From a virus, in UHGV virus genome UHGV-0090257: a stretch of 36,853 nt of DNA. One strand, written 5' to 3'. Of the stretch, positions 16,601-20,103 are shown piece by piece. The number at the start of each line of letters is the position of its first letter. Positions within the stretch are counted from its first letter, which is position 1. Below the pieces are notes generated by a model. It worked only from the letters and a program-made list of their open reading frames with translations, ran no database searches and was not told the origin of the DNA. A program made the position numbers and the translations under genes.

Positions 16601-16816
16601 AACCTCGTCTAGTTGTTCGCCATAGATTCAGTGGCAGGCGGTGACGAGTCCGCTTTTCGGGAGCTACCCTAGCCACTGCTTTATTCTATCCAATGTCTTT
16701 CCATCAGTCCGCCACCACAAAGAATCTTTTTTGCCATAAGGCAGGAGGTTCATCTTTCAGTGGCTGCCAGTGTTATTTCCCCACTTACTGGCTTGGGTTG
16801 TTTCGCTGTACTGCCG

Positions 16817-17359
16817 TTAATTGGTGAGTCCGGGGATTACGGTTTGCCCGTGCTGTTCAAGGCGTTCAATTCTCGCCAGTAGCTGAGGCTTCTTAATTTT
16901 TCCCCAGCGATTAAGCAGGCGGCCTGACATGCTGGCAACATCCTTCTCTTTCATGTACTCCAGCATTACGGCATTTCTCTCTTCTTCAAATTGACGATGA
17001 CCAACCTGAAGCATGGCGTACATCCAGTTGAATGCGTTGATGTAAGCAATTTTGATACGCATTGCTTCTTTTTTGGTGTAGGACATAACCAAAAGCATCA
17101 ACCCATCCTTGCGGAGACGGTAGAATTTTTGCGGCTTACCATTCTGTAACTCATTGTTTTTATAGCAAAGCTCAAAGTTGAGCTTTGTATTAAACTCAGG
17201 AGGGCAAGCTTCTATGGTTCGCTCAATGTCACGGACTACGTTCTTCGGCAGCTTTCCAAATGCTTTTGCCACCATAAAAGAATCTGTAACCGGATCGTTG
17301 TTTGCTACAAAAATTAGGTCTCTGAAATCTATATCGTTAACAACGGTTGGGTAGTTCAT
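16817..17359 (-). CDS. Rha-family phage regulatory protein
   Basis: 180 aa; N-terminal PVTDSFMVAKAFGKLPKNVVRDIERTIE resembles the Rha domain as remembered. Confidence 0.65.
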   Translation of the reverse strand: MNYPTVVNDIDFRDLIFVANNDPVTDSFMVAKAFGKLPKNVVRDIERTIEACPPEFNTKLNFELCYKNNELQNGKPQKFYRLRKDGLMLLVMSYTKKEAMRIKIAYINAFNWMYAMLQVGHRQFEEERNAVMLEYMKEKDVASMSGRLLNRWGKIKKPQLLARIERLEQHGQTVIPGLTN

Positions 17360-18143: not shown

Positions 18144-18616
18144 GCCTCAATCTCTCTGACCGTTCCGCCTGCTTCTTTGAATTTTGCAATCAGGCTGTCA
18201 GCCTTATGCTCGAACTGACCGTAACCAGCCCCCGGCAGTGAAGCCCAGATATTGCTGCAACGGTCGATAGCCTGACGAATATCACCGCGATCAATCATCG
18301 GTAAAGCGCCACGCTCCTTAATCTGCTGCAGCGCAACAGCATCCTGGCTTTTCGGAGAGAAGTCTTTCAGTCCAAGTTGCTTACGGTAAGCATCCCACCA
18401 ACGGGAAAGAAGCTGGTAACGTCCGGCTGCTGTTGATTTGAGTTTGGGGTTTAGCGTGACAAGTTTGCGAGGGTGATCGGAGTAATCAGTGAATAGCTCT
18501 CCGCCTACAATGACGTCATAACCATGATTTCTGGTTTTCTGACGTCCGTTATCAGTTCCCTCTGACCACGCCAGCATATCGAGGAACGCCTTACGTTGAT
18601 TATTGATTTCCACCAT
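18140..18616 (-). CDS. R: Endolysin (lytic transglycosylase), lambda R
   Basis: 158 aa, [51 protein letters not shown]... essentially matches lambda R as remembered. Confidence 0.95.
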
Positions 18617-18923
18617 CTTCTACTCCGGCTTTTTTAGCAGCGAAGCGTTTGATAAGCGAACCAATCGAGTCAGTACCGATGTAGCCGATGAACACGCTCG
18701 TTATATAAGCGAGATTGCTACTTAGTCCGGCGAAGTCGAGAAGGTCACGAATGAACCAGGCGATAATGGCGCACATCGTTGCGTCGATTACTGTTTTTGT
18801 AAACGCACCGCCATTATATCTGCCGCGAAGGTACGCCATTGCAAACGCAAGGATTGCCCCGATGCCTTGTTCCTTTGCCGCGAGAATGGCGGCTAACAGG
18901 TCATGTTTTTCTGGCATCTTCAT
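18600..18923 (-). CDS. S: Holin/antiholin, lambda S (dual-start motif M-K-M)
   Basis: 107 aa, [39 protein letters not shown]... matches lambda S107/S105 as remembered. Confidence 0.95.
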
Positions 18924-19248
18924 GTCTTACCCCCAATAAGGGGATTTGCTCTATTTAATTAGGAATAAGGTCGATTACTGATAGAACAAATCCAGGCTAC
19001 TGTGTTTAGTAATCAGATTTGTTCGTGACCGATATGCACGGGCAAAACGGCAGGAGGTTGTTAGCGCAACCTCCTGCCACCCGCGTTCACGAAGGTCATG
19101 TGTAGAAGGCCGCAGCGTAACTATCACTGATGAATTCAGGATAGCCAGTGGCTACGGCTCAGTTTGGGTTGTGCTGTTGCTGGGCGGCGATGACGCCTGT
19201 TCGCATTTGGTGATCCGGTTCTGCTTCCGGCATTCGCTTAATTCAGCA

Positions 19249-19334
19249 CAAAAGGAAGAGCGCTAGTCTACCTCTATCGATTAACGGGCTTGTGGGGCAG
19301 TATCGCCGATTCACCTAACGCTCTTCCTTTTGTG
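19249..19334. repeat. 16-bp perfect inverted repeat flanking a 54-bp spacer in the late leader
   Basis: CACAAAAGGAAGAGCG at 19249..19264 and its exact reverse complement CGCTCTTCCTTTTGTG at 19319..19334. Confidence 0.6.
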
Positions 19335-19346
19335 ATTGTAACGCAA

Positions 19347-19376
19347 AAAGCCCCGAGCTATTAACTCAGGGCTTTA
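19347..19376 (-). terminator. tR'-like intrinsic terminator of the pR' leader transcript
   Basis: Minus-strand sense GCCCTGAG-ttaatag-CTCGGGGC followed by TTTTTGCG, about 30-55 nt downstream of the predicted pR' start. Confidence 0.6.
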
Positions 19377-19402
19377 TTTAACGAGTGCATTTATCCATCG
19401 TT

Positions 19403-19440
19403 GGGTCAAATTTACCCAGCTTTATTCAAAAAGTCAATAT
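19403..19440 (-). promoter_or_regulatory. Late promoter pR' with Q-utilisation (qut) region
   Basis: Minus-strand sense TTGACT-17 bp-TAAATT directly downstream of Q; the string ttgactttttgaataaagctgggtaaatttgac closely resembles lambda pR' as remembered. Confidence 0.7.
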
Positions 19441-19479: not shown

Positions 19480-20103
19480 CTAACGTGTGACCGCATTCAA
19501 AATGTTGTCTGCGATTGACTCTTCTTTGTGGCATTGCACCACCAGAGCGTCATACAGCGGCTTAACAGTGCGTGACCAGGTGGGTTGAGTAAGGTTTGGG
19601 ATTAGCATTGTTACAGCGCGATATGCGGCGCTTGCTGGCATTCTTGAATAGCCGACACCTTTGCATCTTCCGCATTCTTTCTCAACAACTCTCCCCCACA
19701 GCTCTGTTTTGGCAATATCGACCGCACGGCCTGTACCGTGGCAATCTCTGCATCTTGCGCCCGGCGTCGCGGCACTACGGCAATAATCCGCATAAGCGAA
19801 TGTTGCGAGCACTTGCAGTACCTTTGCCTTAGTATTTCCTTCAAGCTTTGCCACGCCACGGTATTTCCCCGATACCTTGTGTGCAAATTGCATCAGATAG
19901 TTGATAGCCTTTTGTTTGTCGTTCTGGCTGAGTTCGTGCTTACCACAGAATGCAGCCATTCCGAATCCGGCTTGTGATTGCGCCATCCCCATAGCAGCCA
20001 TCACATCAGTACCGGAAAGAGAGTCAGAAGCCGTAGCCCGTGGTGAGTCGCTCATCATCGGGCTTTTTGGCGAATGAAATTTAGCTACGCTTTCGAGTCT
20101 CAT
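19480..20103 (-). CDS. Q: Late-gene antiterminator Q
   Basis: 207 aa; sequence matches lambda Q as remembered ([31 protein letters not shown]...). Confidence 0.95.

Follow-up and report, generated by a model that had tools for sequence, protein, structure and literature searches.

What does the late transcript of a mosaic P22-type prophage contain once RNA polymerase has passed the first terminator? The question was raised by a region of virus genome UHGV-0090257 (36,853 nt, here called the window), between the late antiterminator gene Q and the holin gene S, in which a first-pass annotation had described a lambda-type Q and pR' promoter, a short terminated leader and, directly beyond it, an inverted repeat. 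That annotation left three possibilities side by side: a replaced tR' region, a small inserted element or a structured RNA in the late leader. The analysis reported here indicates that the inverted repeat is very probably a selected RNA structure and one member of a family, referred to below as clamp elements, in which similar closing helices enclose different interiors. Judged by Rfam 15 and the literature that can be searched, this family with interchangeable interiors is apparently undescribed.

The inverted repeat (I1) consists of perfect 16-nt arms at positions 19334-19319 and 19262-19247, on the minus strand. The repeat is as first described; its spacer, given as 54 bp, is 56 nt. The full-length arms, of 20 nt, show 95 % complementarity in DNA, and in late-transcript RNA a single U.G pair completes a helix of 20 bp around 48 nt, so that the whole element occupies 88 nt (19334-19247, minus strand). 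The 5' arm (CACAAAAGGAAGAGCGUUAG, 19315-19334) and the 3' arm (CUAGCGCUCUUCCUUUUGUG, 19247-19266), the latter followed by CUGAA, flank an interior of 48 nt (19267-19314) with an internal helix, CUGCC (19300-19296) paired with GGUAG (19272-19268), and conserved unpaired stretches. The element begins 10 nt past the U-tract of the terminator tR', in the same sense, and CUGAAU follows it. RNA structure prediction, which had been suggested as a check, bore out the fold: a 101-nt stretch containing the element reached -38.7 kcal/mol (z = -5.6), and none of 200 shuffled sequences was as stable. The helix ends are CACAAA and UUUGUG, within the termini CACA(A/G)...(C/U)UGUG of the family, and the U.G pair, at helix position 17 (19318/19263), is U.G in the sense of the late transcript, as in other members. 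The helix is uninterrupted, without a bulged A after position 6 and without a U.U mismatch at position 9.

Alignment of the window with lambda, P22-pbi, HK544, HK022 and Dewey (alignment A1) showed that the repeat has a counterpart in lambda. Lambda and Dewey carry an imperfect repeat, CACAACAGGTAAGAGCA...TGCTCTTTCCGTTGTG, directly after their own tR' (lambda 44787-44862), followed by CTGAATTAAGCGAAT and further sequence that is the same as that downstream in the window. The arms of the two elements are homologous and align at the same site, while the interiors differ (36 nt in lambda, 48 nt in the window); the window interior recurs under canonical arms at other loci (L032 and L008). Since lambda has a homologous repeat directly after tR', the repeat is not an insertion relative to lambda, and the proposal of a small inserted element is not supported. 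The annotation had allowed that the repeat might turn out to belong to the known lambda sequence: its architecture does, and its interior has been swapped and is not that of lambda. Across phages, four different interiors occur in the slot after tR'; a single interior can follow three kinds of terminator, or a transfer RNA (tRNA). In mEp506 and HK446 the slot is occupied instead by tRNA-Asn and tRNA-Thr. No family member was found in the K-12 prophages DLP12 and Qin or in phage 933W, so published maps of RNase III sites and transcript ends are uninformative for the element.

Two observations concern the same slot. In lambda, the annotated orf-64 (L001 453-647, lambda 44621-44815) lies inside the 6S region and runs across tR' into the clamp element, whose first 29 nt it covers, for which reasons it is doubtful as a gene; the same open reading frame (ORF) is annotated as hypothetical in Dewey. 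In another locus (L153 7779-7987, minus strand) a family member with a 169-nt interior is followed by the lambda-like CTGAATTAAGCGAAT, and its interior starts with a complete type I hammerhead core, at 24.7 bits (local E = 9e-4), below the Rfam gathering score of 34.

The full 88-nt element had no full-length match in 50,697 phage records. Matches of ~84 % were found on 86 Escherichia coli plasmids of ~110 kb, which are phage-plasmids, and a partial match was found in Klebsiella phage-plasmids. In the E. coli phage-plasmids, tRNA-Asn, -Tyr and -Thr are followed by the element, 1 nt after the tRNA 3' end, then by a second element with other arms and another interior, and then by tRNA-Ser with a further element 2 nt after it. 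In Klebsiella, an unrelated and shorter stem (GACACCG/CGGUGUC) encloses the window-type interior, and tRNA-Asn follows just downstream. IMG/VR was searched twice, each time with one part of the structure left out of the query. With the interior motif alone, 41 loci were recovered, with 22 distinct sequences (15 once trimmed to the element), in which several unrelated classes of outer stem occur, nearly all of them pairing (L015 has two mismatches). The 5' arm alone returned at least 120 loci with at least ~95 distinct 100-mers; among the matches listed, nearly all had a cognate 3' arm 45-170 nt downstream, with completely different interiors. As a negative control, species-representative genomes contained 91 chance occurrences of the 5' arm, none with the 3' arm.

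A pairing-based finder, which required pairing in the outer 16 positions and CACA/UGUG termini, detected 243 non-overlapping elements among the fetched loci, compared with 23 raw hits when the sequence was shuffled. These reduced to 99 unique elements, with interiors in 56 unrelated clusters and enclosed RNAs of 27-169 nt. A genome-wide scan with a 16-base pattern gave mostly chance matches and lambda contamination and was usable after filtering for the 3' arm; the 29 true genome matches came either from lambda contamination or from prophages, in Serratia, Yersinia, Rahnella, Pantoea, Klebsiella, Kluyvera, Trabulsiella, Rouxiella and Superficieibacter. Noise was all that a stem-only covariance model (R1) returned, being unable to span the 48-nt insert, and its result is uninformative rather than negative. 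Throughout the Enterobacterales, members lie after the late terminators of lambdoid prophages or 1-2 nt after tRNAs in phage-plasmid arrays, and their carriers comprise lambdoid siphoviruses, P22-like podoviruses and SSU5-like phage-plasmids.

The fetched loci also yielded several observations on the genomic surroundings of the family. Phage-plasmid tRNA arrays have as many as four clamp elements interleaved among their tRNAs (L008 865-1986). On a separate IMG/VR viral contig of 70 kb (L109 9203-10730), a six-tRNA array lies ~800 nt upstream of two elements and includes a tRNA whose anticodon is CUA (amber-reading) and which ARAGORN labels tRNA-Pyl. A decayed member just after two tRNAs (L148 7835-7905; arms GGCAAGAGCG...CAGTGCTCTTTCC, cluster 4 interior) suggests that elements can erode in place. 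Many elements in loci L051-L169 are preceded by a small hairpin ending in GCA and followed by GUGAAU and a small hairpin (GCGCAGGCUGAUGCGC), and the repeated unit may be larger than the clamp element itself. The late leader of lambda was also present on small contigs of unrelated genomes and metagenome-assembled genomes (Pseudomonas, Psychrobacter, Algoriphagus, Oceanobacillus, Segatella and others; L181, L185, L204, L209, L211, L224, L226, L238, L239, L258, L264 and L273), exact in each except for one flanking base in L211; this is almost certainly contamination of the assemblies with lambda DNA.

Comparison of the arms provided evidence that the helix is selected as RNA. In an alignment of 79 distinct arm pairs (A3), standard pairs filled 86.9 % of cells, compared with 33-46 % when the partner was slid, and changes on both sides were seen at 18 of 22 pairs; the observed values were reached by none of 500 shuffles. 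The termini CACA and UGUG were present in 79 of 79 rows by construction, having been required by the finder. Positions 17-20, which are outside the detection criteria, still pair, with position 17 being U.G in 55 rows, U-A in nine and C-G in seven. Across the family the helix ends are CACAAC...GUUGUG, with the conserved U.G, and the 3' flank is GUGAA (NUGAA generally). A bulged A follows position 6 in 68 of the 99 elements and is absent from 29 of the 99 unique members, so that the bulge and the U.U mismatch mark the main class and not the whole family. Where stems could be oriented by neighbouring tRNAs, G.U outnumbered A.C on the transcribed strand by 47 to 6. Position relative to other transcribed features was also directional: 11 elements begin 1-2 nt after a tRNA 3' end, and a sense T-tract lies just upstream of 18 of 69 canonical elements, against one for the mirror image.

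The interior of the window element gave a similar picture. Twelve homologues collected by the loop motif alone (alignment A2) showed double changes at five of seven pairs of the inner closing stem and exchanges of U-A with A-U, C-G with A-U and G-C with G.U in the internal helix, while the unpaired stretches were almost invariant between E. coli and Klebsiella elements. The same interior is kept under three unrelated stems, in an E. coli lambdoid prophage, an E. coli phage-plasmid and a Klebsiella phage-plasmid. Pairing in several stem classes, the excess of G.U over A.C and membership in a large family together support a structured RNA in the late leader more strongly than the first-pass annotation could know.

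A short motif in the 3' arm deserves separate mention. The main-class 3' arm holds UGCUCUUU, which we take to be the first 8 nt of the boxA of rRNA (rrn) operons, and the 3' arm of the window (19247-19266) has CGCUCUU, presumably as in lambda boxA. The resemblance may be coincidental, because it is not kept in the co-varying stem variants.

The strongest competitor to a selected RNA takes the repeat for a recombination scar, or 'module boundary', with arms that are merely homology for swapping and no RNA function. The locus is clearly mosaic, its junctions falling at the terminator and the 3' arm, the interchange of interiors in one slot and of the terminators and tRNAs before one interior fits such a boundary, and the arms are nearly identical across genera. 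However, a boundary would conserve sequence and not pairing, and yet stem classes of different sequence all pair; nor would it favour G.U over A.C on one strand or make the inner stem co-vary between Klebsiella and E. coli copies. A boundary without RNA function is therefore unlikely, and since the two roles are not exclusive the arms may promote exchange too. More improbable is a tRNA-like gene of degenerate or unconventional form, acting as a decoy or mimic and belonging to the tRNA cargo that many lambdoid phages have between Q and the lysis genes. Elements do lie within tRNA arrays, directly behind tRNA 3' ends, and have a tRNA-like length; the slot holds true tRNAs in mEp506 and HK446; and T-arm-like hairpins occur in nine of 99 interiors where 0.12 would be expected. 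Against this, a 20-bp terminal helix is no acceptor stem, the window interior is without a T-arm or anticodon-arm motif, and 47 of the 56 interior clusters contain no T-arm-like hairpin. According to ARAGORN, neither the window nor any element contains a tRNA, and the Rfam tRNA models matched only the true tRNAs in the flanks.

It is very improbable that the element is a second terminator or attenuator, or an independent small RNA (sRNA) with its own promoter. A promoter-like sequence (TTAATA-18-TACAAT, 19364-19335, minus strand) is present in the window-type junction only, its -10 directly abutting the element, and sRNA genes are known from the moron slot that follows pR' (PMC4104026). However, no U-tract follows the helix, the flank being CUGAAUUAAG; promoter-like sites in the region are at chance level (two found, 1.2 expected), and this one is absent from the other contexts of the family. 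The sRNAs of that slot, AgvB/AsxR, Pas and STnc100, end in terminators and bind Hfq, and their Rfam models do not match the element, on which grounds they were rejected as its identity. More generally, Rfam 15 (including AgvB, AsxR, STnc100, YrlA/Y RNA and hammerhead models) gave no relevant match at E <= 10 for the window interval or at E <= 5 for canonical elements; at the gathering score, the element was unmatched in the window and in 27 related loci, which matched only in their flanking tRNAs, and permissive searches added one sub-threshold hammerhead. Still less credit can be given to a hairpin that acts as single-stranded DNA, as a signal for replication, recombination or packaging. G.T is the least destabilizing DNA mismatch, so strand asymmetry alone does not exclude this; the elements, however, are invariably located in tRNA operons or untranslated transcribed leaders and oriented with transcription, their carriers replicate and package differently, and the internal helix of the interior co-varies with G.U intermediates. 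Least credible of all is a miniature inverted-repeat transposable element (MITE), or its remnant, inserted in the late leader. The elements would suit a MITE in their length (~70-170 bp), their 16-20-bp terminal inverted repeats, their CACA...TGTG termini and their many copies in mobile DNA. Target-site duplications (k >= 4) were found in 0 of 99 elements, and the MITE was rejected for this reason; in addition, the arms co-vary rather than keep a transposase-binding sequence, the interiors are unrelated, which is the opposite of MITE families, position and sense are fixed relative to terminators and tRNAs, and alignment A1 contains no clean empty site.

The remainder of the region was of known type. 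Q (19480-20103, minus strand; a 207-aa ORF) lies directly upstream of the late control region and is identical to lambda Q at 207 of 207 residues. A promoter scan placed pR' at 19409-19437 (minus strand), with -35 TTGACT (19437-19432), -10 TAAATT (19414-19409) and a 17-nt spacer, so that the lambda-like character reported for both was correct. The promoter and qut align with features annotated in the P22-pbi, HK544 and mEp records, and the Q-binding (qut) spacer between the hexamers differs at three positions from the lambda qut string that the mEp and HK records quote. The predicted start, 19402, was transferred by homology from the P22-pbi feature "5'-nucleotide of P late RNA". From there runs AACGAT (19402-19397, minus strand), invariant in alignment A1, which we take to be the -10-like element that induces a sigma-dependent pause in lambda. 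The strong hairpin and U-tract reported close to the start were also found: a 13-bp hairpin (19375-19347) and a U-tract extending to 19345 form a tR' of P22/HK022 type, identified by folding and homology (19345-19375, minus strand; -23.4 kcal/mol, z = -4.0, 0 of 200 shuffles as stable). The terminated leader, 19402-19345, would thus be ~58 nt.

Between +1 and the terminator end, the window matches HK544 exactly and is one base off HK022 and ~92 % identical to P22; the same segment is 92-98 % identical to P22, HK620 and mEp235, with the conserved AAAGCCCUGAG...CUCGGGGCUUUUU terminator present. P22-pbi annotates the homologous P late/PR', qut, late-RNA 5' nucleotide and 't late or tR', antiterminated by gene 23 protein'. 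Judged by these alignments, the short terminated leader is an ordinary P22/HK022-type leader acquired by mosaic exchange among lambdoid phages and is not new, and the ~58-nt RNA is the predicted P22-type counterpart of lambda 6S RNA, occupying the place of the 194-nt 6S region of lambda. The first suggestion, a replaced tR' region, was thus accurate, and the replacement is of a known type. Short late-promoter RNAs are noted for lambda, 21, phi80, 82 and P22 in PMC7547250. Beyond the clamp element, lambda-like sequence resumes up to S, as had been reported: the rest of the late leader (18924-19246, minus strand) is of lambda type with ~96 % identity to lambda (alignment A1), and the first gene of the late operon is S (holin/antiholin, 18600-18923, minus strand), a 107-aa ORF that matches lambda S. 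Within this leader, a perfect 12-bp hairpin followed by GUUUUG (inverted repeat I3, 19078-19049, minus strand) is kept in lambda, P22, HK022 and HK544 and resembles a weaker second terminator or a stability element ahead of S. Overall, the window is an Sf6/HK620-like (P22-type) prophage carrying lambda-type early, nin, Q and lysis modules, its late genes (Q, S, then R and Rz further left) all being on the minus strand. Just past Rz and an antirepressor-like ORF (16817-17359), within the P22-like late region, the Rfam int-alpA RNA motif was matched at 16617-16679 (minus strand; 45.1 bits against a gathering score of 35.8).

Taken as a whole, the locus is probably best explained as a recombinant late-control region whose clamp-family RNA helix may serve processing of the RNase III type. 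In this explanation, lambda Q together with a lambda-type pR' and qut would drive the late transcript of an Sf6/HK620-like prophage. Without Q, transcription would stop at the P22/HK022-type terminator and leave the ~58-nt leader RNA; with it, the modified polymerase would read through tR' and transcribe first the 88-nt structured RNA, a 20-bp helix closing the conserved 48-nt interior and its small helix. With the chance-level promoter-like site set aside, the element would be transcribed only after readthrough of tR'. It is the counterpart of the hairpin directly after lambda tR' and very probably a member of a 'clamped' RNA family in which a near-constant closing helix carries swappable, mostly unrelated interiors, in late leaders and in the tRNA arrays of phage-plasmids. 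We infer that the helix may act as a double-strand-specific site for RNase III-type processing and stabilization, in analogy to the processing stems of rRNA. Cleavage there could part the upstream leader or tRNA from what lies downstream, make the interior RNA available by releasing or presenting it, and define where the lysis-gene mRNA begins at its 5' end.

RNase III itself is a serious candidate for the mechanism, at somewhat less than even odds on the analysis given here. The helix has the size of an RNase III substrate, an intramolecular duplex of 20 bp or about two helical turns, and its geometry agrees with the in vivo rules that PMC6212723 gives for E. coli RNase III, an agreement that is not discriminating. 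In lambda, the clamp helix is the obvious candidate for an RNase III site because it is the only duplex of ~20 bp in the leader. A tentative extension, somewhat less likely again than RNase III cleavage, is that the clamp helix, with its invariant ends, fixed U.G and conserved GUGAA flank, is a portable ~20-bp processing frame of a modular 'small-RNA cassette' system in temperate enterobacterial phages and phage-plasmids, which would express, excise or stabilize varied small RNAs from the leaders of late operons and from tRNA arrays, with cassettes exchanged as units and lambda carrying one, unrecognized, after tR'. Among the RNAs so carried would be the conserved ~48-nt RNA of the window, RNAs resembling tRNA arms and, on a sub-threshold match, at least one hammerhead ribozyme.

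Several results weigh against these interpretations. Pairing was required in the outer 16 positions, and the co-variation counts there are partly circular. Interiors across the family have a median z of -0.43; many may be neutral filler, because they are mostly not unusually stable by themselves. The element is absent, by alignment or search, from P22, HK022, HK544 and 933W, and is therefore dispensable for late expression. Within the searchable literature, no experiment was found that links the clamp helix to RNase III, and a full-text search for the arm sequences returned no paper. Finally, the sequence of the helix is strongly conserved across genera (CACA/UGUG ends, U.G and bulged A), and RNase III alone needs no such conservation. 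The conserved ends, fixed U.G and GUGAA flank suggest that the helix has an additional specific partner.

The RNA made right after lambda tR' has been little studied, despite the late switch being a textbook example. Should the clamp helix prove to be such a shared frame for processing, it would explain how lambdoid phages and phage-plasmids mature the untranslated stretch before the lysis genes, with its tRNAs, toxin genes and sRNAs. It would also expose dozens of uncharacterized small RNAs of phages, some of them conserved across genera, with possible roles in lysis timing, tRNA supply or counter-defence. The helix further provides a simple signature for annotating a recurrent non-coding feature that is now left unannotated or placed under doubtful ORFs such as lambda orf-64.

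Comparison with known systems places the window between two classes of late leader. It shares with the P22/HK022/HK97 class the promoter, qut, AACGAT, ~58-nt leader and terminator; past the terminator, that class has unrelated sequence without a clamp element, whereas the window has a clamp element and then a lambda-type leader. With lambda it shares Q, the promoter architecture, a clamp helix with homologous arms directly after the terminator and the same downstream leader, but in lambda the terminated RNA is 194 nt, the helix has a bulged A and a U.U mismatch, and the 36-nt interior is unrelated. The moron-slot sRNAs AgvB/AsxR, PasA-D and STnc100 occupy the same Q-to-lysis neighbourhood of lambdoid prophages and differ in being Hfq-binding RNAs of 50-90 nt with their own intrinsic terminators, often convergent to the late operon. 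The RNase III processing sites of lambda late RNA are, going by its title, reportedly the subject of a 1988 paper by Daniels, Subbarao, Blattner and Lozeron (Virology 167:568; reference 49 of PMC7547250), and the literature search found no other paper describing RNase III sites in lambda. The transcript concerned is likewise the Q-dependent late one, and the lambda clamp helix is a candidate for one of those sites. In phage T4, the tRNA cluster includes two small stable RNAs and is matured by host RNases, RNase III among them; it resembles the clamp-containing arrays in having structured RNAs other than tRNAs within a phage tRNA array, and we know of no relationship in sequence or structure between those RNAs and clamp elements. 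The RNase III stems of rRNA operons offer a parallel in arrangement, with complementary segments flanking 16S and 23S RNA and enclosing it in an untranslated polycistronic transcript near tRNAs. They differ in that the RNAs enclosed by clamp helices are of 27-169 nt and mostly unrelated to one another, and in that the sequence of the clamp helix is itself conserved.

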